DNA of 64,000 nucleotides from Polyangia bacterium (lineage in GTDB: Bacteria > Myxococcota_A > Polyangia > Polyangiales > Polyangiaceae), in NCBI GenBank assembly GCA_030426145.1, contig JAUHZF010000008.1:819-64818 (forward strand). Direction: 5' to 3'. Every line of letters starts with the position of its first letter. The stretch's first letter is position 1. Below are positions 14,420 through 61,265 of the stretch, piece by piece. The translations under genes and the position numbers were made by a program. Below the pieces are notes generated by a model. The model made no database searches, had not been told where the DNA came from, and saw only the letters and a program-made list of their open reading frames with translations.

Positions 14420-14422
14420 GGC

Positions 14423-15097
14423 TCAACGAGGGCAGTTCTGGTGGTTCGGACCGCGCTTACCACACTTCTCGGCACTCGCTTCGAAGCCCTTGTTGGGGTC
14501 GTTGAGCATCTGGTAGTCCTCCTCTTGGCCGTTGCGGTACCTGTCGAAAGGGCCCTTGATTTCGAGGGTGCGGTTGCCGACCAGCCCGTCGGGGAATCGC
14601 AGCCGGCAGCCGTTACCATAGACCTGCCGCCACCCGTTCACGCCTGGCGCCACGTTGCGGAACATCTGGCCGATGCCGAGACAGTTGCGAAAGACGCCGC
14701 CGCTCATGCCCGAGAGCATGCCCATGCCGGCTCCAAGGAGTGTTCCGCCCGCCATGTAGGCGGCCCTCGCGTGTCCTCCCGCAACCGCGCGACAGGCCGG
14801 GCCGATGACCGGGTTGTTGGCGAGGCTCGCCGCGGTGCCGACAAACCTACCCACGATGCAAGGCACCTCGCGAGCCGTGGCCGCCGCAAGCGCACGCCCG
14901 GCCTGGGTGTTCGGCGCCGGGAGGTTGTTGAGCGCGTCGAAGAAGTAGTTGTTGAAGGTGCCGCGTGGTCGAAGTCGGGGGCGCTGACAGAAGACCTCGG
15001 CCGCCTGCGTGAAGGCGCGGCAGTACAGCTCCCACTTCTGCCCGTCAGGCATGGTGAGGCCGGCATTGACGAGCGCGGTTGGAGCTTGGGTCGCCAT
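14423..15097 (-). CDS. Putative T6SS cargo effector with a C-terminal PD-(D/E)xK-like motif
   Basis: 224 aa, directly downstream of the PAAR-like gene. It contains a Gly-zipper-like hydrophobic stretch (GGTLLGAGMGMLSGMSGG) and, near the C-terminus, RLRFPDGLVGNRTLEIKGPFDRYRNGQ, which fits PD...ExK. Confidence 0.65.
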   Translation of the reverse strand: MATQAPTALVNAGLTMPDGQKWELYCRAFTQAAEVFCQRPRLRPRGTFNNYFFDALNNLPAPNTQAGRALAAATAREVPCIVGRFVGTAASLANNPVIGPACRAVAGGHARAAYMAGGTLLGAGMGMLSGMSGGVFRNCLGIGQMFRNVAPGVNGWRQVYGNGCRLRFPDGLVGNRTLEIKGPFDRYRNGQEEDYQMLNDPNKGFEASAEKCGKRGPNHQNCPR

Positions 15098-15555: not shown

Positions 15556-16560
15556 TCACAGCTTCTCCTTGCGCATGATGAGGAGCTGTTCGACCTCCTC
15601 GTACTTCCTCGGGAGGCGGAAGGACGCGCGCCAGGTGAGCTCGACCCGCATAGCGTCGGCGTCGATCAGCACCGTGTCGAGATGGCTTCTCGCCTCGCTG
15701 CGGCGGCCCGCAACCAACATCGAGAACCCGAGGTGGAGACGGGGCAGCGCGAACTGCCACAGCCCCTCCGGTGTTGCGCCGATGACCTCGACCGGCTCAT
15801 CGCCAGCCAAACCAGCCATGCACCATTGGTCCTCGGGAGCACACACATTGAAGCGCGGATCGAAGTCGTCGGGCAGGAGCGGCATCTTGTAGCTCATCCA
15901 CGCTTCGTCGTAGGTCCCGGCGAAGCGACAGCGTGGCTCCCAATGTCGGTGAAGGGGTCCAAAGCACCATGGCGTGTGGTCGCTCGTGAGGCTGCCTCGC
16001 TCGATCTGCACCGCGGGCTGGCCTACGAGCTGGGACGGGTCGCTCGCCACCCCACGGCCGACCGTGTTGCGCGCGTCGCCAACCGGTCGCTCTGGGTCCG
16101 ACAGGTCGAGACCGCCCCATGCGAGCTCGTACTTCAGCGGCACGGGCTGCTGGATGGGCTGTGCCGGTCCTGGCCATGGTCGCCCACCGCTAGTGCTTTC
16201 CCAGACCCTGGGTCCGTAGACACGCGCCGACTTCTTGATGGGACCCATACGCAACGACACGTCGACCGCCTTGTCCAAGCCCGGACGACGAGGGTGCGCG
16301 TGGCCCACCAACAGGACATCCGTCCCTGGCTTGAAGTCAAAGACATCGGAGGGCTTGCGAATGCTGCTCATGGCCGGGTCCTCGCCGTGCCATTCATCCA
16401 CCAAGTAAGGACGCGGGGCCTCGGTCGCCGCCGTGACGTGGCCACGCGCATCCACATCGAAGGTCTGCTTCGCGATGAGTACGATCTGGTCGCGCCCGTC
16501 CTTGTCCTTCATCGGAAGGGCCGCGTGCTGCGTCGGCGACTCGTTCAATACGTCGAGCAT
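15556..16560 (-). CDS. DUF2169 domain protein (VgrG-associated adaptor family)
   Basis: The start MLDVLNESPT at 16560 overlaps the vgrG stop (TGATG). DUF2169-like blocks: IVLIAKQTFDV, FKPGTDVLLVGHAH, CFGPLHRHW, FNVCAPEDQ, DTVLIDADAMRVELTWR. The listed 534-aa form is a spurious extension. Confidence 0.85.
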   Translation of the reverse strand: MLDVLNESPTQHAALPMKDKDGRDQIVLIAKQTFDVDARGHVTAATEAPRPYLVDEWHGEDPAMSSIRKPSDVFDFKPGTDVLLVGHAHPRRPGLDKAVDVSLRMGPIKKSARVYGPRVWESTSGGRPWPGPAQPIQQPVPLKYELAWGGLDLSDPERPVGDARNTVGRGVASDPSQLVGQPAVQIERGSLTSDHTPWCFGPLHRHWEPRCRFAGTYDEAWMSYKMPLLPDDFDPRFNVCAPEDQWCMAGLAGDEPVEVIGATPEGLWQFALPRLHLGFSMLVAGRRSEARSHLDTVLIDADAMRVELTWRASFRLPRKYEEVEQLLIMRKEKL

Positions 16561-18782
16561 CACTTGTCCTCGACCACCGGAACTAACTCGGGTTGAGGTC
16601 CGGTCGCGGTCAACTTTATGGTCGATGACTTGATCACCACGCTGCCCCCACCGATCGCCACCGAAGAGCCTCCCACCTTGAGAAGGATCTTGGCTCCGTT
16701 CATCGAGACCGCGCCGCCGACGTTCACCGTTAGGTTGCCATTGCTCTCGAAGCCGACCTCGCTCGCCGCGTTTGCCGCCCAGGCTCCGCCGACCGTCGTC
16801 GCCTTGGCGCCGCCCACCTTGACCCCCACGTCGGCACCGCTCGCCTGAACAAGCGCCCCGCCGACTGTGGTCGCCTTCGCCCCTAGCGTGGTGTCGCTCT
16901 TGCCCGTGGCGCAGGCCTCCACCTTGGCGCCCCCAACCGAGATGGTCGTCGCGCCCGCGACGGCGATGCCTACCTCCAGCGCCGCGACTTCCAGGCAGCT
17001 GCCCCCGACCGTCTCGGTGAGCGTGGCCGGGGTGCTGACCCCAACGCTCATCGGCGTCATGGTGGTGTGACTGCCCCCGATGGTCCAGGTGCGGTCGCCT
17101 TTGACGGTGATGTTCTCGCCGCCGCCCACCGTCTTTGTGCGGGAGGCACCAACCGACCAAGTCTGGGCTCCACCGACGGTAAGCTGATGCGCGTCGCCTA
17201 TGGTCGTGGTCTCATTGGCGCCCACATCACGCGTGTGATTGGCCCCCACCGCGACCTGGGCATCGGTGGTCACTTTCTCGGTCTTGTCGTTGGCCACGAC
17301 GAGGTTCTGGTCCTTCTCCGCGTGCACGTGAACGTGCTCGGACCCTGCCGCGTCCTCCATGCGCACCTCATTGTGTCCGCCTCCCCCCGGAGACGACGAA
17401 GACTGAAGCGACGACTGCGTCTTTGATCCAGGGAGGGGATAGGGGGGGCGATAGGTCCCGTTGTAAAGCCGGCCGAGCACGACCGGTCGGTCGGGATTGC
17501 CGTCCTCGAAGTCGACCAGAACCTCCCAGCCAACCCGAGGGATGGCCACCGATCCGCTGGTGTGCATCTGGGTGACTCTCACCCAGGCCGAGCTCGTGTC
17601 ATCAGAGGCTCCTCCGCGGTCGAAGGGGAACTTGACCTTGATGCGGCCGAACTCGTCGCAGTGGATCTCCTCTCCGGGCGGCCCGGTCACGGTGGCTAGC
17701 TGCGGCCCGGGGACCAGGGCCCGCGGTCGTGGATGGCTGCGAAATACCATCGTCGCCGGCAACAAGTGGAACGTGTTCTCGTACTGCCGCTCGGCGTCGT
17801 GGGCGTAGCGATGCGTCACGTTGCGAACCACCCAACGCTCTTCGAAGGCGCCTCCGGGTCCCTCCATCAGAGAAAAAGCGTGGCCCGCGGAGAATCCAAA
17901 GCACGTGCTCATGCCTTCGAGGCCGACCGATGCCGCCGTCCATGCGTCGACCCGCACACGAGCTCTGCGACTTCCCTCCGAAGCATCCGAATACCCCCCC
18001 GGGAAGTCGTACTCTTCCAACCCCAGTACCGCGTCCGACGTCGCTTCCACCTCGAGGAGGCCGGGTCGCTTGAAGTCGTGATCGCGGAGCGTCACCTTCC
18101 CCGGACGCACCTGCTCCACCTCCTCGAGCCAATGGATCGCCTCGGCCCCGGTGAGCGCGCGCTCCTCGCGAAAGATGACCTCGGGCAGATCGACGTAGGC
18201 GCTCGGATCATCGGCGAGCACGACACGCGGCTCCCCGTCCTCGATCTCGACGAAGCCGAAGATCCCGTCTTCGGCCATCAGCCGAAGCAGGAAGTCGTAG
18301 CTCGTCTCGCCGTACTGGGTACAGATCTCCCGTTCAGGCAACGTCCCCGTGATCCGCCACAAGATGCGGTCCGACAGAACCGCTTCGTCGAAGACCTGGC
18401 TTGCGATGTCCTGGCTCGTCATCTCCTGGAAGAGCCGATAGTCCCGCGTGTGCCGAAGCAGAACGAATGGGGACTCGATGACCACCGCGATGTGCTGATG
18501 GGTGTCGCGCCCCTCTATCCCGAGTGGGGTCGCATCCTCCCCCACCGACGTCACCACGCCCGCGAAGTGACGCAACGGCTCACCGTCCCGCATCACGACG
18601 ACGGAGGCGCCACCGAGGAGCCACGCCTGGGGCTCGATCTGGGCGCCGGGCAGAACGACGTCGACGTCGATACGGTAGTCGGGGGTCAGTGACTCGACGA
18701 CGGTGAAGCGTCGAACCGTCACCATGCTCGGGTCGACGCCTTCCACGGCGAAGACCACTTCGTATTGGTCCTTCGTGCTCAT
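16560..18782 (-). CDS. vgrG: Type VI secretion spike protein VgrG, copy 3 in transcription order
   Basis: gp27/gp5 core motifs: LFQEMTSQDIASQV, GPPGEEIHCDEFGRIKVKFPFDR, IPRVGWEVLVDFEDGNPDRPVVLGRLYN. It has a C-terminal beta-helix with VGG repeats. Confidence 0.95.
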   Translation of the reverse strand: MSTKDQYEVVFAVEGVDPSMVTVRRFTVVESLTPDYRIDVDVVLPGAQIEPQAWLLGGASVVVMRDGEPLRHFAGVVTSVGEDATPLGIEGRDTHQHIAVVIESPFVLLRHTRDYRLFQEMTSQDIASQVFDEAVLSDRILWRITGTLPEREICTQYGETSYDFLLRLMAEDGIFGFVEIEDGEPRVVLADDPSAYVDLPEVIFREERALTGAEAIHWLEEVEQVRPGKVTLRDHDFKRPGLLEVEATSDAVLGLEEYDFPGGYSDASEGSRRARVRVDAWTAASVGLEGMSTCFGFSAGHAFSLMEGPGGAFEERWVVRNVTHRYAHDAERQYENTFHLLPATMVFRSHPRPRALVPGPQLATVTGPPGEEIHCDEFGRIKVKFPFDRGGASDDTSSAWVRVTQMHTSGSVAIPRVGWEVLVDFEDGNPDRPVVLGRLYNGTYRPPYPLPGSKTQSSLQSSSSPGGGGHNEVRMEDAAGSEHVHVHAEKDQNLVVANDKTEKVTTDAQVAVGANHTRDVGANETTTIGDAHQLTVGGAQTWSVGASRTKTVGGGENITVKGDRTWTIGGSHTTMTPMSVGVSTPATLTETVGGSCLEVAALEVGIAVAGATTISVGGAKVEACATGKSDTTLGAKATTVGGALVQASGADVGVKVGGAKATTVGGAWAANAASEVGFESNGNLTVNVGGAVSMNGAKILLKVGGSSVAIGGGSVVIKSSTIKLTATGPQPELVPVVEDK

Positions 18783-18790
18783 GGTAGACC

Positions 18791-21004
18791 TCAGTTGTGC
18801 TTCACCACAGAGCCCTTCTTGTTCACGACAGCGCCCGGCGCGAGGATGGTCGGCGCCTTGACCTCGACGCTTCCGCTCTTGACCTTGACCGAGCTCCCCC
18901 CGCAGCGAATCGAGATCTCGCTCTCGGCCTCGATCTCGATGGTAGGCGCATTGGCCAGTAGTGCTCCGCCCACGTTGAAGACCAATGGTCCCGTCGCCTG
19001 CTCGCCGACGTTGCCTCCGGCGGCAATGGCGTAAGCGCCGCCCACCGTCTCGGCGAGGGCCCCTTTGACGCTGGTCTCGACCCCGCTCGCTCCGGCACAG
19101 ACCTTCGCACCGCCGACCGTCTCGGCCACCGCGCCGCCGGTGATGTTGTCGACCCCCGTGGCCGCTGCGCTGACCCAGGCGCCTCCCACGGTGATGCTCA
19201 GGGATCCCAGGACCAAGCGATTCACCCCGAGGGCGGCGACGTCCATCATCGATCCCCCCACCGTGAGGGTACGGCCGCTCTTGGCTTCGACCTTGCTGCC
19301 CATGGTCACGGTCACGGTCCTCGATCCCCCGACTGTCACCGTTTCGGAGCCCTTGATCTGGGTCCCTCGGTCGCCCCCGACCGTCACCGTCTCACTGCCT
19401 CCCACCGTGCAGCTCTGATCGTCGGTAATGCCGCAAACGAGCTGCGTCCCCACCGTTACGTCGAGATTGGAACCAATGGTGTGTGTGTAATCGACGCCCA
19501 CCTTGTCGGTCTTGTTGTCACCAATGGTGACGTTCATGTCCTTGGTCGCGTTCATGAAGATCTCCTCGGAGCCCTTCTTGTCTTCGAACCGGATCTCGTT
19601 GCTGGTTCCGTCCCCCGGGGTCGTGGCCGTCTGCCAGGCCGTGCGCGTCTTGTTCTCGGGAAGTGTGTAGGGAACGGGATGCGTGCCGTCGTAGACGTGA
19701 CCGGCCACGAACGGCACGTCGACATCGTCTTCGTTGAAGCCGACCAGCACATCCCAGCCGATGCGCGGCATGATCATCGAGCCACCCAAGGCGAACTGCC
19801 CCACCCGCATCCAGGTCGACGCTTTGTCGTCCTTGCCCCCTTCGCGGTCCCAGTAGAGCTGCACGCGCACACGCCCGGTGTCGTCGGAGAGGATCTCCTC
19901 CCCCGGCGGACCGACGACGATGCCCGTCTGCGGCCCGCCGGTGCTGCGCGTGGGCGATGTTCGTGCGGCACGGTATCGCGTGTCCACCGCGATGGCGCGC
20001 CACGCCACCGTGAGCTCTTGCTCGACCGGAAGCTCGGCGCCGCCCGAAGAGGTCTCCTTTCCCGGCGTGTAGTTCACCTCGAGCAGCAGGTACGTCCCGT
20101 TCATCGACTCGAGGGGATGGCCCTCGATCTCGAAGGTCATGCCGGGCTGGAGATGGCCCCCAACGGCTTCTCCGTAGGTGACCTCCGCTTCGGCCGTAAG
20201 GGCTTCGAGCTCGACATCGGCGAGCCGCTGCCCCTCGGAGGGGTCGGCGAAGCGCCCGGGACAGTCGTACCGCTCGAGGGTGTCATCGCCGGCCGAGACG
20301 TCGAGCGACAGGCTCGGTTGCTCGAAGTTGTAGTCGCGATAGCGGACTCCCGTCGGCACCATCTCGTGTCGTCGGCCCAGGGAGTGCACCGCCTGGGTCG
20401 CCATCATCAGCCCGGCCGGGTCGCGGAAGGTGAAGGCCGCATCGCCGGGCACCGACGAGGCATGGGTCGTGTCATCGGCGAACACGAGCGTGGTGTCGTC
20501 AGCGGTATGCTCGAAGAAGTAGGTGATGCCCTCTTCGCCCGCGAGCCGAGCGATCACGTCCCAATCCGACTCGCGGTACTGCACGATGTAAGGGCGCACG
20601 GGGAAGCTCCCGTGAACCCGCCACTCCACCGACGCATCGATACTCGCCGTGTCGAGGATCGCCTTGATCGCCGCCACCGCATCCATCTCCTGAAAGATGC
20701 GGCTGTCGGTTCCGTAAGTGAGCTGCGAGACGGCAGGGCCGAGCGTGAGCACGTGCGACACCGCACCCAACGAGCTCATCCGCCTACGAACCCCATAGAC
20801 GTATCCGTGGACGAAGCTTCGCGCTTCGAGGGCATCGCGCAGCGTGAGCTTGAAGGACTTCCCCACGAGCGCATCGACCGCCGGTCCGCCGTCCATGGGA
20901 AGGGTCTCGACCTCCAAGCCGAACGGCTTGGACAGCTCGAAGCGCGCGCGTGCACTGGCCACGCGCATGGTCTCTCCGGATACATCGATCTCGAGCGGAC
21001 GCAT
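18791..21004 (-). CDS. vgrG: Type VI secretion spike protein VgrG, copy 2
   Basis: IFQEMDAVAAIKAILD, GPPGEEILSDDTGRVRVQLYWDREG, MPRIGWDVLVGF, and a C-terminal beta-helix. There is an 8-nt gap to the next vgrG. Confidence 0.95.
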   Translation of the reverse strand: MRPLEIDVSGETMRVASARARFELSKPFGLEVETLPMDGGPAVDALVGKSFKLTLRDALEARSFVHGYVYGVRRRMSSLGAVSHVLTLGPAVSQLTYGTDSRIFQEMDAVAAIKAILDTASIDASVEWRVHGSFPVRPYIVQYRESDWDVIARLAGEEGITYFFEHTADDTTLVFADDTTHASSVPGDAAFTFRDPAGLMMATQAVHSLGRRHEMVPTGVRYRDYNFEQPSLSLDVSAGDDTLERYDCPGRFADPSEGQRLADVELEALTAEAEVTYGEAVGGHLQPGMTFEIEGHPLESMNGTYLLLEVNYTPGKETSSGGAELPVEQELTVAWRAIAVDTRYRAARTSPTRSTGGPQTGIVVGPPGEEILSDDTGRVRVQLYWDREGGKDDKASTWMRVGQFALGGSMIMPRIGWDVLVGFNEDDVDVPFVAGHVYDGTHPVPYTLPENKTRTAWQTATTPGDGTSNEIRFEDKKGSEEIFMNATKDMNVTIGDNKTDKVGVDYTHTIGSNLDVTVGTQLVCGITDDQSCTVGGSETVTVGGDRGTQIKGSETVTVGGSRTVTVTMGSKVEAKSGRTLTVGGSMMDVAALGVNRLVLGSLSITVGGAWVSAAATGVDNITGGAVAETVGGAKVCAGASGVETSVKGALAETVGGAYAIAAGGNVGEQATGPLVFNVGGALLANAPTIEIEAESEISIRCGGSSVKVKSGSVEVKAPTILAPGAVVNKKGSVVKHN

Positions 21005-21008
21005 GTGC

Positions 21009-23312
21009 TCACCCCAGGAGGTTCGGGCTACCAGAGACCTTGATGGCGCCCGATGCGTCGAGGGTCACCATGCCAACGAAGCTCGCCGACGCCGGAGTGA
21101 GGTTGACGATTCCCCCACCGCCGAGGAGATTTGCGACTCCGAGGACGTTGATCGAGACCTTGCTGCCCTTCATGGTGAACTTGCTGCCGGCATTGGCATT
21201 GATGAGGCCACCCACCGTGACGGCAGTAGCCCCCTTCGTGGAGGCGAGCCGATTGCCTCCCGCCGCCTGCACGCAGACGCCACCGACCGTGCAGGCATAG
21301 GCGCCGATGACGGACTCGGTGACCGACTTGCCCGACGCGGCGACCTTGGCGCCCCCGATGGTCTCGGCCTTGGCGCCGGCGACGGCGACCCCCACCCCCA
21401 AGCCGGCGGCGGAGAGCATCGACCCGCCCACGGTCAACGCCTGGGCGCTGGTCGCCGTGCGGTCGATCCCCAGGGCAGCCAGCGCAGTATGGCTGCCCGC
21501 GGTGGTCTCGCTGTCGCTTCCTTCGATGGTGGCGTTGATGGCTCCGCTCACGGTCACCGTCTCGCTCGCACCGACGGTCTTGGAGCGGTCTCCGCTGATC
21601 ATCGTGGTCGCGTTGGCCCCCACGGTGAGAGAGCGGTCGCCCCCGATGGTGACGTCCTGATTGGCCCCGACCTCGAGCGTGCTGTTGACGCCCACCTCCT
21701 GGGTCTCGTTCACGCCAATCTGTTCGGTGCGGTTGTTGTTCGTCTGGCCGTCGAAGTCCTTCGATGCATTGACGAAGAACTCCATGCCGCCGCCCCCGTC
21801 CTCCATACGGTACTCGTTCGACTTCCCGCCACCTGGGCTCGTCGGCGTCTGCAGGGCCATGCGGGTGCCGGCAGATGGGTAGCCGTAGGGAGAGGTCTTC
21901 TCGCCGTTGTAGAGCCTCTGAGCACCGATGGGGCGATCGGGATCACCATCCCAATAGATGACCGACATCTCCCACCCGACCCGGGCTAGGGCCATCGAGC
22001 CGCCGATGGGCAGCTGGAGCGTGCGCATCCAACGCGAGCTGGTGTCGTCGTCAGCGCCGAGCCGGTCCCAGAAGAACTTGCCCTTCATGCGACCGTACTC
22101 GTCGGTGTGGATCTCCGATCCAGAAGGACCGGTGACGACCACGCTGTGATTGCCCCGAAGGCGCGGGAGGGGCGTGCGTCGGGGTGGTCGATATGGAACC
22201 CCACGGTCCATGCACTCGAACCGGTTGGTGTAGCCCTTCTCTTCGTCATCGCCGCGTGGTCGAAGCGACCACTGGTGCTCGACACGACGGAGCAGCCACT
22301 TCTTGTTGAGCGCATCCCGAGCCGCCCCCGCGAGCTCGAACCACCTGCCGGCCCCAAGGGTCGCGATGTTGGAGACGCCACTCCCAAGGCTGCGCTCCGC
22401 CGCGATCTCCTGGGCCCGAATCTCCGCCAAGGCTTGTCCCTCTTCGGGAGTGAGGTGGCCGGCAGTGTACTCGTAGTCGTCGCCGACGGCTTGCCCGGGA
22501 AGGCTGTGCGTGAGGTTGAGGTCGACGGCGGGCGTCTCGAAGTTGTAGTCGCCGACGCTCGCGCTCTCGGCCGTCACCCGCGAAGTCAACCTCAGCCGTC
22601 GAATACCGACCCCGGACGTGTGCTCCCCCACCAGGGGCCACTCCGTGATTCCGTCGATGGGGAGGAACGCACTCTGCGCATCTGCAATGTGCAGGTTGGA
22701 GGTCCCCTCCTCGTCTGCGACGAAATAGAAGATCCCCTCGTGCTCCAGCAGGCGCGAGAAGAAGGCATGATCGGACTCGCGGTACTGCACACAATAGACG
22801 CGGACGGGGAGACTCCGGTGCACGCTCCAATGGCGCGTCGTGTTGGTCAGCGCCCCCCGGTCCAGCACGTCGTCCACGATCTGCTGCGTATCGAGCTCCT
22901 GGAACATGCGAACGTCGGCCTTGATCTCGAGACGCGTCAGCTCGTGGGCGAGCTCGAGCACGTATTGAAGGCCACTGCCATCGATCCCGGCAAACCGCAC
23001 CGCCCGCACGAGAAAGTGGAAAAAGCGCGCCGGGCTTCCGTCGAGGAGCACCACCAGCACCGCCGGCGCACCGAGTGCGCTCGCGAGATCGAGCTCCGAA
23101 GAGGAGACGACGGTGACCTCCGCCCGACTGGATCGCGAGATCTCTTCGACTACCGTGGCACGAACGAGGACGAGCTCAGCGCTCCCCAGCGCGTCGCACC
23201 GCAGCTCGAGATCGAAACGATTGGCCATCTCTCCATCGGCTGCCACGGCGGCCGAGGCTAGCAGGTTCCCGATCCCGTCGGGATCGGTTTTCCTTGAGCG
23301 CAGGGATGCCAT
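21009..23312 (-). CDS. vgrG: Type VI secretion spike protein VgrG, copy 1
   Basis: MFQELDTQQIVDDVLD, GPSGSEIHTDEYGRMKGKFFWDR, ARVGWEMSVIYWDGDPDRPIGAQRLYN. GAGGAG lies 8 nt upstream of the ATG at 23312. An alternative start is Met29 (MANRFDLELR, 23228), preceded by GGAGAG. Confidence 0.93.
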   Translation of the reverse strand: MASLRSRKTDPDGIGNLLASAAVAADGEMANRFDLELRCDALGSAELVLVRATVVEEISRSSRAEVTVVSSSELDLASALGAPAVLVVLLDGSPARFFHFLVRAVRFAGIDGSGLQYVLELAHELTRLEIKADVRMFQELDTQQIVDDVLDRGALTNTTRHWSVHRSLPVRVYCVQYRESDHAFFSRLLEHEGIFYFVADEEGTSNLHIADAQSAFLPIDGITEWPLVGEHTSGVGIRRLRLTSRVTAESASVGDYNFETPAVDLNLTHSLPGQAVGDDYEYTAGHLTPEEGQALAEIRAQEIAAERSLGSGVSNIATLGAGRWFELAGAARDALNKKWLLRRVEHQWSLRPRGDDEEKGYTNRFECMDRGVPYRPPRRTPLPRLRGNHSVVVTGPSGSEIHTDEYGRMKGKFFWDRLGADDDTSSRWMRTLQLPIGGSMALARVGWEMSVIYWDGDPDRPIGAQRLYNGEKTSPYGYPSAGTRMALQTPTSPGGGKSNEYRMEDGGGGMEFFVNASKDFDGQTNNNRTEQIGVNETQEVGVNSTLEVGANQDVTIGGDRSLTVGANATTMISGDRSKTVGASETVTVSGAINATIEGSDSETTAGSHTALAALGIDRTATSAQALTVGGSMLSAAGLGVGVAVAGAKAETIGGAKVAASGKSVTESVIGAYACTVGGVCVQAAGGNRLASTKGATAVTVGGLINANAGSKFTMKGSKVSINVLGVANLLGGGGIVNLTPASASFVGMVTLDASGAIKVSGSPNLLG

Positions 23313-23378: not shown

Positions 23379-23879
23379 ATGGAGGAGAGCACGACGACGA
23401 CAGCCGTCCCACCGCGTCTCGACGAAGTGCACGGACTCACCCTCAAGGCCCACGCGGAAATCGCAGCCGAGCTGGCAGAAGGCACCGTGCCGCCGGTCGA
23501 CGTGCTCGCCAAGCACGAGCTCGACGAGGCCAAGTGGAACGAGGCCACGACCCAGTGGATGAAGTACCTGGCCGCCGACGTGCAGGCGCGAGGCGCCGAG
23601 GCGCGCGCGCCGCTCGTGTACTCGGACGCCTTCGCGCAAGCACAAGGTCGGCTCGCCGAACCACCCCAGATCAGCGCCGAGGACTACGCGACCTTGGTGG
23701 CGGAGATCATGGCCGCCGGAGATCCGGCCGGACCGCTCGCGCGGCGCGGCTGGTCGAACGCCGACTACATTCGCCTCTCGCGATCGATGGCTACGAAGCT
23801 CGCGAGCGATGAAGAAGCCCACGAGCGATACTTCCATCGGCTCGTTCACCTGCAGCCGAAGGGGGACGTGCAGTCGTGA
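23379..23879 (+). CDS. Hypothetical helical protein; carries LxL...W-x6-W module copy 1
   Basis: 166-aa ORF divergent from vgrG, with GGGGAG 5 nt upstream of the ATG. GC is high at codon position 3. ATGA-type overlap with the next gene. Confidence 0.6.
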   Translation: MEESTTTTAVPPRLDEVHGLTLKAHAEIAAELAEGTVPPVDVLAKHELDEAKWNEATTQWMKYLAADVQARGAEARAPLVYSDAFAQAQGRLAEPPQISAEDYATLVAEIMAAGDPAGPLARRGWSNADYIRLSRSMATKLASDEEAHERYFHRLVHLQPKGDVQS

Positions 23880-24343
23880 CCATCGATGCCACCGTGGAGA
23901 CGACACGCGCCGAGCCCAAGACGAGCGGGGCCACCGAGGGCGAGCTACGCGCGTTGCGCTTGTGCTCCCTCGACGACGAGACGGCCGTCCTCGGCCTCGG
24001 AGGGCGCCAAGTACAGGCGAACATCGACGAAGGTGTCGACCGCGCCGTGTTGGAGGGTGCACGCTCCCGCGGCGAACGGGTCATCGCCGTGCACGAAGCG
24101 GGAACCTGGACCGTCCTCGGCGTTCTTCGAACGCGTGCCACCCCCGGTCTCGAGCCTGGCGACGACTTCACCATCGAAGCGAACCGCGTCAAGGTGATCG
24201 CAGACCACAGCTTTCTCGTGCGAAGCGGACCCACGAGTTTCTCGATGCGGGCACAGGGCTTCGTCGAAACTCTGGCCAAAGACATCTCCACCCGGGCCAC
24301 CGCCGTGCACAAGCTCATCGGGCGGCTGGTCCGCATCAATTGA
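23876..24343 (+). CDS. Hypothetical small protein whose C-terminus resembles a VgrG terminal beta-helix
   Basis: 155 aa. Its C-terminus (TIEANRVKVIADHSFLVRSGPTSFSMRAQGFVETLAKDISTRATAVHKLIGRLVRIN) aligns by eye with the VgrG-2 end (TIEIEAESEISIRCGGSSVKVKSGSVEVKAPTILAPGAVVNKKGSVVKHN). Confidence 0.6.
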   Translation: MTIDATVETTRAEPKTSGATEGELRALRLCSLDDETAVLGLGGRQVQANIDEGVDRAVLEGARSRGERVIAVHEAGTWTVLGVLRTRATPGLEPGDDFTIEANRVKVIADHSFLVRSGPTSFSMRAQGFVETLAKDISTRATAVHKLIGRLVRIN

Positions 24344-24349
24344 CGCGAC

Positions 24350-24673
24350 GTGAGCGACGGCGAGCTTCCTCAGTTCCCAGGGGGACCCGACCCCAACCTA
24401 CCCATTCCGCGAGAGGCCGTAGAGGGCCTCAGCCTCACGCAGTATGGTGCGCTGCTCGCCGAGCTCGTGGCCGCGCCTACCAAACGGGCCGAGATCCTGC
24501 GTGCCCATCGACTCGACGAGCTGCAGTGGAACCGGGTGGAGCAGACCTGGCTCCTGCGGGTCGCAACGGCGGCCATGAAGCGAGATCTGTCGTTTCAGGC
24601 CGAGCTCGACGAAGCCTTCGGCCAGCGGCGCGCGCAGCTGCGGACCTCTGAGGGTCAGCATCATGACGGATGA
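24350..24673 (+). CDS. Hypothetical small helical protein; LxL...W-x6-W module copy 2
   Basis: 107 aa. EGLSLTQYGALLAELV...ILRAHRLDELQWNRVEQTW parallels residues 17-57 of the 23379 protein. Confidence 0.55.
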   Translation: MSDGELPQFPGGPDPNLPIPREAVEGLSLTQYGALLAELVAAPTKRAEILRAHRLDELQWNRVEQTWLLRVATAAMKRDLSFQAELDEAFGQRRAQLRTSEGQHHDG

Positions 24674-25724
24674 TCTTCCTGCTGGGTCCGCCACCATCGC
24701 CGGCGTCGGTGCGCGCACCCACAACGGGTTCACCGCCTTGCAGGTCACCATGGCCCTACGGGCGGATCACATGGACCCGACGATGTCGCACATGGTCGAC
24801 GCGCACGGAGAAGCGATCGCGACCTGCCGCGACATGTCGATCGGCGACGACGTGCAGGGTCTCGCGCGCTTCGTCGCGCTCGCGGTGCGACCTCTGGCCG
24901 AGGCGGCTCGACCTTGGTGCGAGAACGAGATGCGCAGGCGGGGCTCGGTACGACCCCTCCCGGTGGTGGTCGCATTGCCTTCGCCAGATCGCCCTGGCTT
25001 CGACCACGACCTACCGCGGAGCTTCCTCTCCCTGGTCGTCGAAGGCGCAGGCCTACCGGTCGATCCCGCGTCGCGACTCGTCTTCGGGGGAAGGGGCGGC
25101 GGGGTCGAAGCATTCCGGTTGGGCTTGGAGCTGATCCGCGAAGGACGAGAAGCGGTGCTCGTCGGCGGGGTGGACAGCTACTTCGATCCCGACGTGCTCG
25201 AGCACCTCGCATCAGCCCGACGCCTGCACTCTCTCGAAACGGAGAATGGCTTCATCCCCGGCGAGGCCGCGGCTTTCGTCCTCCTGGTTCGGTCGCGAGA
25301 GGCCACGGCCCTCTACGGCTACGGCGAGCTCCTATCGGCGGTGACCCACGCCGAACCGCAACCCTACGGAAGCGAGGAGCCATGCATCGGCCTCGGGATC
25401 ACCGCCGCCGTGCGTGACGCCGTCGCGGTAGTAGGGCCGACGTCGGGCCGAATCCCGTGGGCCCTGACCGACGTCGCCAACGAGCGTCATCGCGTGGATG
25501 AATGGAGCTATGGCATCACGAGGAGCCATCGAGCCCTACACCCGGACGCCGAGCACGAGCAGCCACTGCTGAACACGGGAGACGTGGGCGCCGCGAGCGC
25601 CGCCATGCTGCTCAGCATTGCTTCGGTTCAATGGCAAACGGGATGCGCACACGGAGACTGTGTGCTCATCGGAACACACTCGGACGGCCCCATGCGCGGA
25701 GCCATGGTGGCGCGAGCGAAATGA
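24663..25724 (+). CDS. Beta-ketoacyl-synthase-like (thiolase-fold) protein lacking the catalytic Cys-His-His triad
   Basis: KAS-like blocks: AVLVGGVDS, ENGFIPGEAAAFVLLV, NTGDVGAASAAM (in place of GHxxGAAG). There is no Cys at the expected nucleophile position (FGGRGGGVEAF). Confidence 0.7.
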   Translation: MTDDLPAGSATIAGVGARTHNGFTALQVTMALRADHMDPTMSHMVDAHGEAIATCRDMSIGDDVQGLARFVALAVRPLAEAARPWCENEMRRRGSVRPLPVVVALPSPDRPGFDHDLPRSFLSLVVEGAGLPVDPASRLVFGGRGGGVEAFRLGLELIREGREAVLVGGVDSYFDPDVLEHLASARRLHSLETENGFIPGEAAAFVLLVRSREATALYGYGELLSAVTHAEPQPYGSEEPCIGLGITAAVRDAVAVVGPTSGRIPWALTDVANERHRVDEWSYGITRSHRALHPDAEHEQPLLNTGDVGAASAAMLLSIASVQWQTGCAHGDCVLIGTHSDGPMRGAMVARAK

Positions 25725-28477
25725 CCACGGCGACCGAGGCAGACGAAGCACCCGGCGTGCAGGCCGCCCACATGGCCCGGCGGTCGATCGACCGCGCCCT
25801 CAGGCGCGTGCGGGACATCCCGCTCACCTTCGATCGCGACGCGGTCGGGACGCGCCTTCATCGGTCCATCCAGTGCCTCTACGCCGTCATCGATAGCGAG
25901 GTCACATCACGTGTGCACTACGATGGGCTCTCCGAAGCCAAGAAGCTGGCGGAGGAGTGCCGCGCGCTCCTCCTCGGCGCAGGGAACCCCGACGAGGTCC
26001 CCACGCTGGACGAGGTCGTGGACACCCTGGCATTGGCGACCTCGGGCCTCGCACTGGGCGTCGATGCCGTGGCCCAGATTCAACTGGCGCGGCGCCTCGA
26101 GCTGCACGCCGGGCGTCGACCCGATGGCCACGCGGAGCTGAGACCCCTCCGAGCCTCGCAGGGCATGCCGGAGCTTCACACCGTGGAACGCGAGCCGCTC
26201 GTCTCGGAGATATCCGTGGCTCCCGTGGTCGCCATCAAGGCCCCCCAGCCCGTCCCGCACGTCATACCGCGGCCGACGTCATTCGAGGCGCTGGAAGCCT
26301 TCGTGAAGGCGGGAAGCAGCGGTGAGCTGCCGGGTCAGGCCGATGAAGAAGAGGTGCAGGGAGCGACGGCCATCGTCGCTCCACGATATGCCTTCACCCC
26401 TGCCGTCGCCGAAGCCGAGTGCGTTCGACGCCTCGCCCGCGACTTCCTCGAGAATGCCGCCATCGGACGGGACCTGCGAAAGCCCAACGCCATCGAGAGC
26501 TGGCGCGACCAGGGCCCGTTCGAAGCTCGTCTGTGCCATCAGGTCGATGCCTTCGCGTCGCTCGGCGCCTCCGCACTCCCGCTCGTCAGCCTCTACTGCG
26601 AAGAGATGGACGGCACCGACCCGGGGCGCGCCTTCGCCGCAGCCCTGACGCTGGGCAGCATCGAGGGGCAAGATACCGTCGACACCGCCATCGCCATCCT
26701 GCGCTCGAGTCAGCCCGAGACCTTCCCCGGCTGGCGTGAGGGGTTTGCGCTCGCCCCCAGCCCGAGCATCGACATCGCGATGGGCGAGCTCTGTCGCGAC
26801 GAACGCCCCGACCTGGTCGCCTTCGCCCTCGACGTCCTCTGCGACCGAGGCCGACTTCCCGACGACGTCCTCCGACCACTCCTTCGGCGTGAGGAACCGG
26901 TCGTCGTCTCGGCCGTGGTTCGGGCGCTCGGTCACGGCCTGCCCCAGGACGAGGCTCGGGCAGCGCTCGAGTCGCACCTCGACACCGACGGCAGCGAAGA
27001 GCTCGCGACGGCCGCTCTCAGCTCCCTCGTTGTGCGGGACACCCGTACTGCTCGAAGCCGGCTGCGTCGCGAGCTGGAAGCCCCATCCCCGCGCGTGGCT
27101 TCCCATGTAGCCGCCTGGCTCCTGTGTCTCGCCGGCGACGGCTCGGACCTCGACATGTTGCTCGCCGTCGGTCGTTCTGCTCCACATGCGCGCCTTCTCG
27201 CAGGCTTGGGACGACATGGACACCCAAGCGCGTTGCCTTTTCTCGCTTCCCAGCTCCACCGAGAAGACGAAGAGCTCGTGGCCGCCGCCGCCGAAGCCCT
27301 GGAGCGGATCACGGGCGCCGGTCTGTTCGAGACGGTCGAGGAGCCCTGGGAGATCGAGCTCCCTCCCGAAGCCGAAGCGGCCCTGGTGGTCCCCATTCCC
27401 ACCCGCAAGGTGCGCAGGGTGATCACGGACCCCGACGTGTGGGATCGATGGTTGCGAGATCACCCCATGGCCCCTGGGCAGCGGCACCGGGGCGGGCGCC
27501 CGTTCCACCCATCACACATCATCGACGAACTGGAGAGTCCGCAAACTCCCCCCGAACGGCGCCACGAAGCCGCTTTGGAGCTGCGCATCCATGGGTGTGA
27601 GGTCCCGTTCCGACCGGACGACTGGGCGGCACGGCAGGCGACGCACCTCGTCGACGCACGGGCTGCCATCGAGACACATGGGCGCGAGGGCGGGAGTTGG
27701 CATCACAGCCTCGCGGTCCCGCACCACGTTGAGATCACGACGGAAGCCAAGGACCCTCTGATGGGGACCATGATGATGTCGTCGTTCTCCATGCCAGACC
27801 TCACGTCGTTGCCATTCGCTGGCGCGACGGATCCGGCGACCCTGCCCGTCGATCCCGCGGAGGAACCGCCACCCTCGATCGACCTCGGCCAAACGCTGCC
27901 CCCATCGACAGCGCCACGCAAGCCCGACGCCCCCGTCAAGCCTGCGATGCCGTGGGAAAATCCGCCGGCGGGCCAACCGCGGCCTGCCACCGCGGGCGAG
28001 CCTCCGGCCGTGTCCACCCGAGAGCCTCAGGCTGAAGCGGCACCAGCGTCCCAACCCGCACTCGACCCGCTGCTACAGACCGTGATGTCGGACTCGGGGG
28101 CGGTTGCGCGCGCTGCACTCCCGTTCACCAGCGATGGCCCGCCTGTGCCCCCACCGGCGGAGCCCGCGGCCCCGCCTCCGAGGTTGGACGGCACCATGAT
28201 GTCTACGCCGAGCCCGATAGCCCAGGCCGCGACGCCCTTCTCCACGCCCAAGGGCGACGCTCCCAAGCTCACCCTCGACTGGTACGCCTGGTTGAGCGTG
28301 CGCGAGTCGCTAGGCGCGCAGCTGTTCCAAGAGGCCCTCGAACGTTGCGGCATGCGGGACATCCGGGTGTGGTTTCGCGAGAAGCGGATCTGGCAGCAAC
28401 GACTGGCGACCAACCCCGACGAGGCCCAGCGCCTCGAGCGCTTCATGGCGCACTATCGGGCGCAGCTCGGAGGCTGA
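25721..28477 (+). CDS. Large HEAT-like repeat protein (TIGR02270-like) with a Pro-rich disordered region and a C-terminal LxL...W-x6-W module
   Basis: The start MTTATEADE at 25721 is an ATGA overlap with the previous stop. Blocks FEARLCHQVDAFASLG, PVVVSAVVRALGHG and AAAEALERITGAG resemble the TIGR02270 HEAT-type family (from memory). A Pro-rich tract spans residues ~720-860. Confidence 0.7.
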   Translation: MTTATEADEAPGVQAAHMARRSIDRALRRVRDIPLTFDRDAVGTRLHRSIQCLYAVIDSEVTSRVHYDGLSEAKKLAEECRALLLGAGNPDEVPTLDEVVDTLALATSGLALGVDAVAQIQLARRLELHAGRRPDGHAELRPLRASQGMPELHTVEREPLVSEISVAPVVAIKAPQPVPHVIPRPTSFEALEAFVKAGSSGELPGQADEEEVQGATAIVAPRYAFTPAVAEAECVRRLARDFLENAAIGRDLRKPNAIESWRDQGPFEARLCHQVDAFASLGASALPLVSLYCEEMDGTDPGRAFAAALTLGSIEGQDTVDTAIAILRSSQPETFPGWREGFALAPSPSIDIAMGELCRDERPDLVAFALDVLCDRGRLPDDVLRPLLRREEPVVVSAVVRALGHGLPQDEARAALESHLDTDGSEELATAALSSLVVRDTRTARSRLRRELEAPSPRVASHVAAWLLCLAGDGSDLDMLLAVGRSAPHARLLAGLGRHGHPSALPFLASQLHREDEELVAAAAEALERITGAGLFETVEEPWEIELPPEAEAALVVPIPTRKVRRVITDPDVWDRWLRDHPMAPGQRHRGGRPFHPSHIIDELESPQTPPERRHEAALELRIHGCEVPFRPDDWAARQATHLVDARAAIETHGREGGSWHHSLAVPHHVEITTEAKDPLMGTMMMSSFSMPDLTSLPFAGATDPATLPVDPAEEPPPSIDLGQTLPPSTAPRKPDAPVKPAMPWENPPAGQPRPATAGEPPAVSTREPQAEAAPASQPALDPLLQTVMSDSGAVARAALPFTSDGPPVPPPAEPAAPPPRLDGTMMSTPSPIAQAATPFSTPKGDAPKLTLDWYAWLSVRESLGAQLFQEALERCGMRDIRVWFREKRIWQQRLATNPDEAQRLERFMAHYRAQLGG

Positions 28478-28744: not shown

Positions 28745-31687
28745 TCAACGGCGCAAGCGTTCGCGGCGCACGCGCACCCGCCACCGATAGTTCGGAGCAC
28801 GGCCGAGCTCCAGCACCACGTCGGAACCGAGAGGCCCACTCAACCTTCGGCGCGCCTCCTCCAGCGTGCGCACCGGCGCGCCGTTCGCCGAGAGGAAGCG
28901 ATCACCGGGCAAGATCCCCGCCCGCTGCGCCTCGCCTCCGTACGGCACGTGCTCGAACACGATGTGCCGCTCGCCGCTCACCACATCCGACGCCAGCGTC
29001 ACCGCCAGGCTCGCTTGGCTGCGTACCCGCGTGGTGTCCACGTCGGGGTCCTCCTCGAGCTCGATGGGCACGCCCTTGAGCTCGCGTCCGGCAGTGATGC
29101 TCACCGTGACCCCGTTGCGCCCGTAGCCGACCTTGTAGGCCTGGATCTCGAACCGGCCCGGCTCGAGGTCGGGCAGCAAGAACCGCCCCTGCGCGTCGGT
29201 CTCCACCACCCCGAGCGGCAGACGCCCCAACGGCAAGAAGGTGGGCACCCGGCCTGGCGCCACCCGCGCCCCTTGGATCGGCTCGTTGTCGAGGTCGCGC
29301 ACCACGCCGCTCACCGAGCCGCCCTCCATCATCTTGATGCGGCCCAGGTCTACGTCGCGGCGGCCGTCACCCTCCACCTCGACCAGCACCTCTTGCGGCA
29401 CCAGACCGCTCTTCGTCACCAGCAGACGCGCCGGTCCCATCGCGAGGTCGTCGATGCGGAAGCTGCCCTCGGCGTCGGTCCGCGCGCCGCGATCGCCGGT
29501 GGCCGTGAGCAAGGTGATCTCCGCGTCCTCCACGTAGCCCCGAGACGTCTCCACCACCCCCACCACGGTCAGGCCCGGTCGCATCGACAGCTCGAGGATG
29601 GCGGGGGCCCCGTCGACCTCCTCCACCAGCGGCGCCCAGCCTCGTCGCCGCGCGATGACCCGAAGGGGCAACCCGCGTCCCCCGTCGAGCACCGCCTCGC
29701 CACGTTCGTCGGCGAAGAGCGTCTTGACCAACACCTCCTTCGCCTCCAGCGACGAGACGTGGATCTCAGCGTCTTCGATCGCGAAGCCGCGATCGTCCAC
29801 CACCCGCACCGTCACCCCTTCCCGGGGTTCGCCGAGAACGATCTCCACTTCGCGCCGCTCGTCGGCTGGTACCTCGAAGGTCTCGCGCGCCACCACGTGC
29901 TCGATGGCCTCCATGCGTGCGACCGACACCGTCACCTGCGCCGGCAAGGCCGCAAAGGCGAAGGTCCCGTCGTCGGACGTGAAGGTCACCCGGCCCAGCG
30001 AATGCGTCGCCGAGTCGACCTCGATGCGGGCCCCCGGCACTGGGGTGCCATCCTCTTCCACCACGCGTCCCTCGAGGATGCCGCCCTTGCGCATGACGAC
30101 CTCGATCTCCGCCTCCCCCCCCGACGCGAGGTCGACCGCGTCGGTCACGGTCATCACGTAGCTCGGGTGCCGAGCCACGATGCGCACCTTGCCTGGCGTG
30201 ACTGGGGTGAGCGAGAACTCGCCCTTGCCGTCGCTCATCCAGGCCCCGTCCGTGCGGTCGGTGCGCGTCACCACCACCGGCCCCGACCCCATCGGGATGT
30301 CGGGCACGATGGGCATCACCCCGAGCTCTCCCGCGGGAATGAGCGGCGAGGGTCCCGGTAGCGCCGACGCAAAGTGGTCGTCGCGAAAGGCCGACAACTG
30401 GCTCGAGTCGACGATGGGCATGCCCGCGGTGTCGACGCCGACCACCTCGAGGGAGACGCCTTCGACGGGGAAGCCATCTTCGTCGACCGTGCGCCCGAAC
30501 AGCCGTCCGCCACGCTGCAGGGCGATGGTCACCTCGGCCTGGCCCGGCTCGCGCGGAACCGCGCTTCGAGCCACGTAGCCATCGGCGCGGGCCGAGATGG
30601 TCGCGCCGTCGCCGAGCGTGGGGCCCAAGATCACGTGGCCACTCGCGTCGGTGCGCCCGTACCTCGGGAACGACGAGATCCCGTCTTCGACCAGCGCGAC
30701 GTCCGCGTCGGCGATCCCCTTGGCGTCGTCGCCTTCGCCGTCGGTCACGTGCACCGTGACCCAGCTTCCCTGCTGCAGCGCGACCGTCACCGCTTTGCGC
30801 TCGCCCTGCTCGAGCATCACGCCGGTCTCGGTATCGCTCACCATGTCGCCCCGCTCGGCGCGCACGTCGTAGAACCCGCGGGGCAAGCCGCTGATCACCA
30901 CCATACCCTGCTGGTCGGTCGTCGCCTTGCGCGCCGGCCACAGACCCGAGCCCGCGACCACCACCGTGGCCCCCGCCGCCGGTCCTCCCAGCGGCTCGAG
31001 CACTTGCACCTCGAGCCCGCCCAAGCGCAGCAGCTTCACGAAGAGCGGCGAATCCTCACCGTAGAGCTCGTCGAAGAAGGCCCGGTCGTAGCCGGGCGCC
31101 GTCACCTCCACCGCGTAGGGCCCGCGCTCGGGCAGCCCCGCAAACTTCGCCAGACCAGTGCCGTCCGTCGTGGTCACGAAGGGCAGCGGGTCGCGGCTGT
31201 AGAGCGTCACGCGGATCCCCTTGATGGGTCGCTGCAGGGGGTCGACGACCACGACCTCGAAAGACGCGGCGGGCGAGAGCTGCACCTCCAAGCGCCGCTC
31301 CCCGGGGGAGAGCACCATGTGGCTGCTCGCGCGCGACTGGCCCTCCTTTTCCACCAGCACCCAGGTCTCGCCCTCGGCCAAGGGCGTCACCTTCGCGACG
31401 CCGTTGCCGTCGGTGTAGGCGTTGCCGGCGGGGATCGCGCGCCCGCCCACCAGGGTGTAGACCTGCACCCGAGCCCCCACCACCGGCTGTCCGTCGCCGT
31501 CGACGACCCGAGCGAGCAGGCTCGCGTTGCGCTCGAGATCAGGCGGGAGCGCCCCGCCCGGTGACAGATCCGGCGCGAAGAGGGCCCGGTCGGAGGTGTC
31601 CCGCAGCGTGACGCAGAAGAGCAGACACACCGCGGCCGCCACCATCACGATGGCCCGCATCAGCGGCGTCATGGAGGTGGTGGACAA
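28745..31687 (-). CDS. Membrane-anchored protein with multiple carboxypeptidase-regulatory-like (CarboxypepD_reg) repeats and a C-terminal PDZ domain
   Basis: N-terminal TM segment (AIVMVAAAVCLLFCV). At least 8 repeats of the G(R/T)VVDxxGxPVxGAxV type. PDZ-like end: GGEAQRAGILPGDRFLSANGAPV. Confidence 0.85.
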   Translation of the reverse strand: MSTTSMTPLMRAIVMVAAAVCLLFCVTLRDTSDRALFAPDLSPGGALPPDLERNASLLARVVDGDGQPVVGARVQVYTLVGGRAIPAGNAYTDGNGVAKVTPLAEGETWVLVEKEGQSRASSHMVLSPGERRLEVQLSPAASFEVVVVDPLQRPIKGIRVTLYSRDPLPFVTTTDGTGLAKFAGLPERGPYAVEVTAPGYDRAFFDELYGEDSPLFVKLLRLGGLEVQVLEPLGGPAAGATVVVAGSGLWPARKATTDQQGMVVISGLPRGFYDVRAERGDMVSDTETGVMLEQGERKAVTVALQQGSWVTVHVTDGEGDDAKGIADADVALVEDGISSFPRYGRTDASGHVILGPTLGDGATISARADGYVARSAVPREPGQAEVTIALQRGGRLFGRTVDEDGFPVEGVSLEVVGVDTAGMPIVDSSQLSAFRDDHFASALPGPSPLIPAGELGVMPIVPDIPMGSGPVVVTRTDRTDGAWMSDGKGEFSLTPVTPGKVRIVARHPSYVMTVTDAVDLASGGEAEIEVVMRKGGILEGRVVEEDGTPVPGARIEVDSATHSLGRVTFTSDDGTFAFAALPAQVTVSVARMEAIEHVVARETFEVPADERREVEIVLGEPREGVTVRVVDDRGFAIEDAEIHVSSLEAKEVLVKTLFADERGEAVLDGGRGLPLRVIARRRGWAPLVEEVDGAPAILELSMRPGLTVVGVVETSRGYVEDAEITLLTATGDRGARTDAEGSFRIDDLAMGPARLLVTKSGLVPQEVLVEVEGDGRRDVDLGRIKMMEGGSVSGVVRDLDNEPIQGARVAPGRVPTFLPLGRLPLGVVETDAQGRFLLPDLEPGRFEIQAYKVGYGRNGVTVSITAGRELKGVPIELEEDPDVDTTRVRSQASLAVTLASDVVSGERHIVFEHVPYGGEAQRAGILPGDRFLSANGAPVRTLEEARRRLSGPLGSDVVLELGRAPNYRWRVRVRRERLRR

Positions 31688-60914: not shown

Positions 60915-61265
60915 CGATTGTAAGCGCAAGCGGGCGGAGAGGGGGGAAGCAACCATGGCAAGCGGAGCTTCTTACGTCCCCCCGGCGCGCTCCTTCCCGC
61001 CACGAAGTTGCTCACGGCCCAGCACTGGACCCGATGGGGCCAGAGGACTAAGTACGAGGCCTTGTATTCGCTACAATTCGTCGCCAAGCGATGTCGTCTG
61101 GGGTGCGGCCCCACGCGTGGCGTGGAGAGCGGCCGTTCTCCGAAGGCCCCGAGCGGACGATGCGAACAGGGATGGTGTTCGCGGAGCTTCGACGCGTGGT
61201 CGCCCCCGGCCGCGGCGAGCCGTGATGTAGCGACCCCTTGGGGAAGCCGATAGGTAGAGCCGCAG

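Follow-up and report, generated by a model that had tools for sequence, protein, structure and literature searches.

A predicted thiolase-fold protein lacking the catalytic residues of condensing enzymes in a type VI secretion spike locus of a Polyangia bacterium

Why a gene resembling a beta-ketoacyl synthase (KAS) should lie amongst the spike genes of a type VI secretion system (T6SS) is the question raised by a 64,000 nucleotide stretch of the genome of a Polyangia bacterium (contig JAUHZF010000008.1; the whole of this stretch is referred to here as the window). The KAS-like gene, found at bases 24663-25724, had been described in an earlier note, made from the sequence alone, as a condensing-enzyme scaffold serving as a non-catalytic component beside spike genes. 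This description was borne out by the predicted structure, by the alignment of profiles and by a survey of 80 loci, and the product is probably a cytoplasmic, non-catalytic KAS-fold protein of the PRK06147/TvpD family that forms an accessory part of the spike-loading machinery of the T6SS. The fold, the replacement of the whole catalytic apparatus, the membership of the family and a near-obligate linkage to VgrG, DUF2169, PAAR-like and TIGR02270-like genes were demonstrated. The implication of the note that such an arrangement is unusual was not supported, as the linkage of the family to the T6SS has already been published (PMC7714669, PMC11883445, PMC13373197).

The reading frame is open in the window sequence and its translation is 353 amino acids long, which is approximately 60-70 residues shorter than FabF and in keeping with the remark in the note that the protein is shorter than a real KAS. 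The KAS structural blocks quoted there (AVLVGGVDS, ENGFIPGEAAAFVLLV and GAASAAM) are present, as are the altered regions FGGRGGGVEAF, WALTDVANERH and GDVGAAS. A model built with AlphaFold2 (AF2) from an input of 47 homologs had a mean pLDDT of 92.1 and a pTM of 0.93, and a Foldseek comparison of this model with the PDB returned 993 matches at E<=0.001. The best of these were the actinorhodin ketosynthase (KS)/chain-length-factor (CLF) pair and many FabF structures (E about 1e-17), with TM scores of 0.74-0.80 (query-normalised) and identities of 12-19%. Because the AF2 model is confident and the Foldseek matches agree with it, the predicted KAS I/II thiolase (alpha-beta-alpha-beta-alpha) fold is taken to be real. 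No hydrophobic segment resembling a signal peptide was found at the N-terminus of the protein, where the first strand of the fold starts at residue 10, and no membrane segment was found in the protein.

Family membership was determined from NCBIfam. The protein matched NF004798 (PRK06147, '3-oxoacyl-ACP synthase', where ACP is acyl carrier protein) over its full length, with residues 11-351 aligned to positions 7-342 of the 349 in the profile (E 1.6e-52, 178.9 bits). For this family only NCBIfam and the fold comparison were informative, and Pfam and PDB sequence searches were nearly blind. Pfam gave a sub-threshold fragment of PF00109 at residues 148-214 (E 4e-4, 20.5 bits against a gathering score of 20.8), and the PDB sequence search returned nothing significant (best E 0.18).

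The note had held that all three catalytic positions are replaced, and this was examined by aligning the family with genuine KS domains. Five genuine KS domains of the same genome were combined into a profile, and an hhalign comparison of the family alignment with it (Prob 96.5, E 8.8e-10, 330 columns) placed the first catalytic His at D270, the second at D307 and the catalytic Lys in a four-residue deletion between L302 and L303. The FabF Cys fell at G143 both in this alignment and in a second hhalign run against the best FabF of the genome. Aligning true FabF sequences to the family hidden Markov model (HMM) with hmmalign put the Cys one column away, at position 144, and this register was rejected because the two hhalign runs agree on 143 and because the ungapped spacing from 143 to G161 (+18) and to GG168/169 (+25) is the same as that from the FabF Cys to the corresponding Gly residues. 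The secondary structure of the AF2 model fits this mapping, as residue 143 forms the N-terminus of a helix (143-159), residue 270 follows a strand (264-269) and residue 307 precedes a helix (309-326), which are the places occupied by the triad in KAS enzymes. The N-terminus of the active-site helix thus carries Gly143 in place of the nucleophilic Cys, and Asp residues replace both His of the HGTxT and GHxxGAAG motifs, so that the alignment with genuine KS domains revealed no intact triad and, beyond what had been noted, the loss of the Lys as well.

The same replacements were found across the family. Among the 47 close homologs, column 143 is C in 29/47, G in 10/47 and D in 8/47. In a broader set of 88 T6SS-linked sequences, drawn from the 80 loci and from the genome of the window (the window included), G predominates in this column, 13 Sorangium-type sequences having C and approximately seven D. 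Position 144 is either H or R, with Arg in the clade to which the window belongs and His in most canonical members of the family. D270 is kept in 86/88 and D307 in 85/88, and none of the 88 has a His at either catalytic His column. The pattern of G/C/D, then H/R, ... D ... D is therefore common to nearly all T6SS-linked relatives, and because it recurs in this way the loss of the KAS apparatus is, judged from these alignments, a property of the whole family rather than of the window gene alone. The most likely role of Asp270, Asp307 and Arg/His144 is that of a polar structural plug or a site of interaction, and not of a condensing centre. Other charged residues kept in at least 90% of the family are R33, R69, E201, E231, E274, R277, E280, R287 and R345.

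The genomic context of the family was examined in 80 loci carrying KAS-like relatives in species-representative genomes, annotated with iterated HMMs seeded from the proteins of the window and counted within the fetched flank. At least one of VgrG, DUF2169 or PAAR-like was found in 78/80 loci; individually, DUF2169 was found in 76, TIGR02270-like in 68, PAAR-like in 67 and VgrG in 65. Spot-checks of the labels showed that the HEAT protein of a canonical cluster scores above the TIGR02270 cut-off (281.9 against 206.8 bits) and that the PAAR-like matches correspond to PF13665. The canonical fab operon order is not present beside the best FabF of the genome, so Escherichia coli AcpP was used as the ACP probe. 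The probe found three ACP matches in the genome of the window and one in a FabF-type locus, which served as positive controls, and none in the 80 loci. An acyl-CoA ligase or other lipid gene was likewise found with the family in 0/80 loci, and neither an ACP nor a lipid or polyketide gene lies near the KAS-like gene in the window. The absence of such neighbours, which the note had recorded for this gene, thus extends to the surveyed family, whose triad-less members are linked to the T6SS and not to lipid or polyketide clusters.

These observations agree with published work. Amongst 11,495 genomes Liu et al. (2020) identified 407 PRK06147 homologs; 74.4% of these homologs were adjacent to DUF2169, 52.3% were followed by a gene for a spike component that was almost always PAAR, and 3.8% were TIGR02270 fusions. 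The authors proposed PRK06147 as a new T6SS adaptor (PMC7714669). A 'synteny type A', in which DUF2169 is found with DUF6484, thiolase-like and armadillo-like genes, was described by Sachar et al. (2025) (PMC11883445). Monlezun, Earl and Coulthurst (2026) named PA0098 TvpD and predicted it to be a PAAR co-chaperone of class II Tvp systems, from AlphaFold complexes that show the PAAR domain of Tse7 in a groove formed by PA0097 and PA0098 (PMC13373197). Proteus mirabilis loses T6SS-dependent killing when the homolog PMI0754 is disrupted (PMC3764213), and effector function there needs the whole pef operon (PMC5714391). The word 'catalytic' is absent from both PMC13373197 and PMC7714669, and the Tvp classification includes no discussion of the role of the TIGR02270/armadillo component (PMC13373197).

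By analogy with the predicted complexes and the genetics of these homologs, the KAS-like protein and the DUF2169 protein (TvpA) would jointly shield the PAAR-like tip, initially on a pre-complex with the TvpC-like mini-spike and later on the VgrG spike, the KAS-like protein serving as a scaffold or co-chaperone. In the clade of the window it may work as a unit with a long TIGR02270-like HEAT protein, and the PAAR protein would be supplied by a small stand-alone gene. A KAS/HEAT unit is suggested because the two genes of the window overlap, because they are adjacent throughout the clade, because three natural fusions were found and because a single-chain model of a fusion is confident.

The note had also placed the gene in a T6SS-linked operon. 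The linkage stands, since vgrG, DUF2169 and a DUF4150/PF13665 PAAR-like gene, the set of neighbours typical of PRK06147/TvpD, are all found within 9.5 kb. The operon, however, is not that of the vgrG genes; the KAS-like gene belongs to a divergent, tightly packed five-gene operon (23379-28477, forward strand) and lies on the opposite strand to the DUF2169 gene, approximately 8 kb away. The features of the locus, and the fusions found elsewhere, are listed in Table 1.

Table 1. Features of the window and KAS/TIGR02270-like fusions found in other loci (fusion positions are those of the locus named)
Feature	Position	Strand	Details
TsiV-like immunity protein preceded by two genes (224 aa and 267 aa) of no known family	12651-15097	-	three genes downstream of the PAAR-like gene
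Small PAAR-like protein, 119 aa	15130-15486	-	PF13665 Tox-PAAR-like domain only; no toxin domain
DUF2169 protein (TvpA-type chaperone), 334 aa	15556-16560	-	
vgrG, third of three in tandem	16560-18782	-	
vgrG, second of three in tandem	18791-21004	-	
vgrG, first of three in tandem	21009-23312	-	divergent from the KAS-like operon
Helical protein, 166 aa	23379-23879	+	first gene of the operon; helical module of ~80 aa in common with the 107-aa protein
Putative TvpC-like (DUF6484-like) mini-spike protein, 155 aa	23876-24343	+	OB-like N-terminal half; short beta-prism-like C-terminus ending ..VRIN
Helical protein, 107 aa	24350-24673	+	same ~80-aa helical module; 3' end overlaps the KAS-like start by 11 nt
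KAS-fold pseudoenzyme, divergent PRK06147/TvpD-family protein, 353 aa	24663-25724	+	catalytic positions G143, D270, D307; Lys deleted
Long TIGR02270-like HEAT-repeat protein, 918 aa	25721-28477	+	HEAT_2 repeats; Pro-rich region near the C-terminus
KAS/TIGR02270-like fusion	L036 9983-12958		
KAS/TIGR02270-like fusion	L050 9980-12949		same metagenome-assembled genome (MAG) as L051
KAS/TIGR02270-like fusion	L051 9974-12979		same MAG as L050

The stop codon of the KAS-like gene overlaps the ATG of the gene for the 918-aa protein as ATGA, which suggests translational coupling of the two. The 918-aa protein itself is a weak match to TIGR02270 (67 bits). The 155-aa protein had no match in Pfam. It was found by an HMM built exclusively from proteins that canonical clusters encode between vgrG and DUF2169 (22.8 bits, E 3e-9 with Z=1), and because one member of that HMM is DUF6484 by Pfam (E 1e-25), the 155-aa protein is probably a divergent TvpC-type mini-spike. 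With this member recognised through the 22.8-bit match, the window would hold a full set of class II Tvp parts, and the genes on the reverse strand beyond the PAAR-like gene probably provide the module with its cargo and immunity.

The 166-aa and 107-aa proteins are related through their common module (29 bits pairwise), which follows the pattern L-[ST]-L ... H-x-L-D-E-x-x-W-N ... W. The HMMs built from them also match DUF2169-containing proteins of approximately 500 aa found upstream of the KAS-like gene in a Chondromyces/Byssovorax sub-clade. Pairwise phmmer gave no significant match for a candidate third copy, located at the C-terminus of the 918-aa protein. An open reading frame (ORF) of 280 aa with an ATG start (23809-24651, forward strand) was considered as the upstream neighbour and rejected as an Arg-rich, wrong-frame artefact that spans the real small genes; such high-GC artefacts could mislead automatic annotation.

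The arrangement found in the window is confined to one lineage. In a large protein collection no relative of the protein exceeded 61% identity, and the closest, which are annotated as 'beta-ketoacyl synthase N-terminal-like domain-containing protein' or '3-oxoacyl-ACP synthase I', belong to Sorangium and other Polyangiaceae. In Sorangium the co-directional parts of the locus run vgrG-vgrG-PAAR-like-x-x-TsiV-DUF2169-TPR-KAS-like-886 aa protein. The canonical architecture, found in many phyla, is VgrG, TvpC-like, [TIGR02270], DUF2169, KAS-like, PAAR effector, ..., [TIGR02270], whereas in the Polyangia-type architecture the KAS-like gene is directly followed by a TIGR02270-like protein of approximately 650-1000 aa. 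The latter was found only in Polyangia (Sorangium, Byssovorax, Labilithrix, Chondromyces and related MAGs), and in no member of this clade for which the downstream neighbour could be identified was that neighbour a PAAR gene. The order DUF2169, thiolase-like, PAAR effector that defines class II Tvp systems and synteny type A was found neither in the window nor anywhere in the clade. A maximum-likelihood tree of the KAS-like proteins, rooted on genuine KS domains, placed the Polyangia type as a single clade nested inside the canonical type, with the protein of the window within it. In three loci from Polyangiaceae MAGs, the KAS-like and TIGR02270-like proteins form a single ORF of approximately 1000 aa. 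An AF2 model of the L051 fusion (pLDDT 84.7, pTM 0.79, despite three disordered linkers) suggests a defined packing of the KAS-like domain on the HEAT solenoid.

Several points weigh against a spike-loading role of the kind proposed for TvpD. The published role itself depends on AlphaFold complexes and on gene-disruption phenotypes that are possibly polar, and the pTM of the L051 fusion is only suggestive of packing. The NF004798 score of the protein is below the curated equivalog cut-off of 342 bits; KAS-like homologs from canonical DUF2169-KAS-PAAR clusters likewise fall below it, at 190-246 bits, so the cut-off appears to be narrower than the T6SS-linked family. Near invariance is also seen in the residues standing in for the triad (D270, D307 and R/H144), which a purely inert scaffold would not need. 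Finally, the KAS-like gene in the Polyangia clade is not beside PAAR and often not beside DUF2169, so a PAAR co-chaperone role may not transfer to it unchanged.

The last of these points could be taken further. The Polyangia KAS-like protein may no longer be a PAAR chaperone and may instead form, with the long HEAT protein and perhaps also the two small helical proteins and the TvpC-like mini-spike, a distinct assembly factor, which could be a filler of the baseplate cavity or an adaptor for unfused effector cargo. Such a switch of partner would account for a downstream neighbour that, where identified in the clade, is always the long TIGR02270-like protein, for the natural fusions and the model of one of them, for the separation of the KAS-like operon from DUF2169 and PAAR, and for the small PAAR protein of the window, which carries no toxin domain, unlike those of the class II systems described in PMC13373197. 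However, nearly every locus of the clade still has DUF2169 and PAAR-like genes within 10 kb, and canonical clusters also include a TIGR02270 gene, so this partnership may predate the clade and coexist with PAAR chaperoning. On this evidence we consider a complete change of role unlikely.

A fuller proposal has three parts, and as a whole it is put forward tentatively, as a conjecture with rather little chance of being right in all of them. The Polyangia clade would represent a distinct, undescribed Tvp sub-class in which an enlarged TIGR02270-type HEAT protein has taken the place of the PAAR effector as main partner of the KAS-fold protein, in some cases through fusion; the KAS-fold protein and this partner, with the TvpC-like mini-spike and the two W-rich helical proteins, would build a pre-complex for the triple-VgrG spike with an unfused PAAR; and the Asp-Asp-(Arg/His) cluster, invariant and located in the former active site, would have a function in binding and not be a relic.

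The conservation of that cluster also bears on whether the protein might still be an enzyme, with altered chemistry at Asp270/Asp307 and Arg/His144, for example in acylation or another modification of the spike or an effector. The near invariance of the substituted positions across phyla would suit this, and a role in acylation was once speculated for PMI0754 (PMC3764213). Nevertheless, G, C and D replace one another freely in the column of the nucleophile, the two His and the Lys have been lost, some 60-70 KAS residues are missing and none of the surveyed loci holds an ACP, acyl-CoA ligase or other lipid gene, all of which make retained catalysis very improbable. That the protein is itself a secreted cargo or effector, as its position within a spike-associated island might suggest, is scarcely credible given a sequence conserved across many phyla with fixed neighbours, the lack of an adjacent immunity gene, toxin domain or signal peptide, and the fact that effectors at such loci are polymorphic genes located after PAAR. 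A non-catalytic accessory of spike loading is thus the reading we prefer.

The genome of the window contains TssC sheath genes elsewhere, together with dozens of vgrG and DUF2169 matches. Three further KAS-like T6SS paralogs were found on other contigs (C165, C288 and C410, including loci L004 and L005). Each adjoins a DUF2169 gene, and the two that were aligned are 28-30% identical. The paralogs on C165 and C288 also adjoin multiple vgrG genes and a TIGR02270-like gene encoding approximately 680 aa, which on C288 is convergent with the KAS-like gene. Within the window, a second DUF2169 protein (59427-60956, reverse strand; 509-aa ORF, Pfam E 1e-67) is located approximately 34 kb from the first, and neither a vgrG nor a KAS-like gene was detected beside it. 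Convergent with the end of the KAS-like operon is a gene for a 980-aa protein (28745-31687, reverse strand) with at least seven CarboxypepD_reg-like domains and a C-terminal PDZ domain, which is probably unrelated to the T6SS module. Two adjacent genes for SPFH/Band 7 domain proteins (425 and 472 aa) are found at 46102-48797 on the reverse strand.

The finding is mainly of value for annotation. Genes labelled '3-oxoacyl-ACP synthase' or 'beta-ketoacyl synthase N-terminal-like' in such a context should be read as T6SS spike-loading accessories and not as lipid or polyketide enzymes. The pseudoenzyme phenomenon is already published, PRK06147 having been proposed as a T6SS adaptor in 2020 and named TvpD in 2026, and what is added here is modest: an explicit residue map of the catalytic loss across nearly all T6SS-linked relatives examined, the observation that the replacing residues are themselves conserved, and a Polyangia clade whose natural fusions tie the KAS-fold protein to the TIGR02270/armadillo-like component. 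This clade offers a handle for testing the role of the HEAT protein. Specific to the lineage are the coupling or fusion of the KAS-like protein to the long HEAT protein, the small unfused PAAR and the divergent TvpC-like operon beside a vgrG triplet.

Amongst known systems, FabF and FabB have the overall thiolase fold in common with the protein of the window (TM 0.74-0.80), which also keeps the GGxD/E and GFxPGEGA motifs, but it differs from them in the loss of Cys-His-His-Lys, in its shorter length and in an identity of only 12-16%. Another is the CLF (KS-beta) of type II polyketide synthases; the actinorhodin CLF (PDB 1tqy_B) was the top Foldseek match and is likewise a KAS-fold partner subunit lacking the nucleophilic Cys. 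It works as a KS/CLF heterodimer within a polyketide cluster that includes an ACP, whereas the protein of the window also lacks both His and the Lys and has no KS partner or ACP nearby. TsmK of Acinetobacter, a second, apparently unrelated T6SS pseudo-ketoacyl synthase (PMC10564176), is a further case of a KAS-like fold co-opted by the T6SS with loss of catalytic residues. It is, however, a membrane-associated factor of the membrane complex, largely confined to Acinetobacter, encoded in the core cluster and with one His kept, whereas the protein of the window is linked to the spike and has no signal or membrane segment.

The nearest counterpart is TvpD/PRK06147 itself (Pseudomonas aeruginosa PA0098, P. 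mirabilis PMI0754/PefC and Vibrio parahaemolyticus VP1399). The protein of the window differs from it in being only approximately 30-35% identical to the canonical-cluster homologs and in belonging to a separate Polyangia clade, in having Arg at position 144 where most canonical members have His, in being followed by the long TIGR02270-like protein and not by a PAAR effector, and in its operon, which is divergent from the vgrG triplet and served by a small PAAR gene and not by the PAAR-effector fusion of class II Tvp and synteny type A loci. The two nevertheless have in common full-length homology, the same KAS fold, the same pattern of catalytic replacement and the same neighbours, namely VgrG, probably DUF6484-like, DUF2169, PF13665/DUF4150 PAAR-like and TIGR02270-like genes, and the protein of the window is a new member of this known family.

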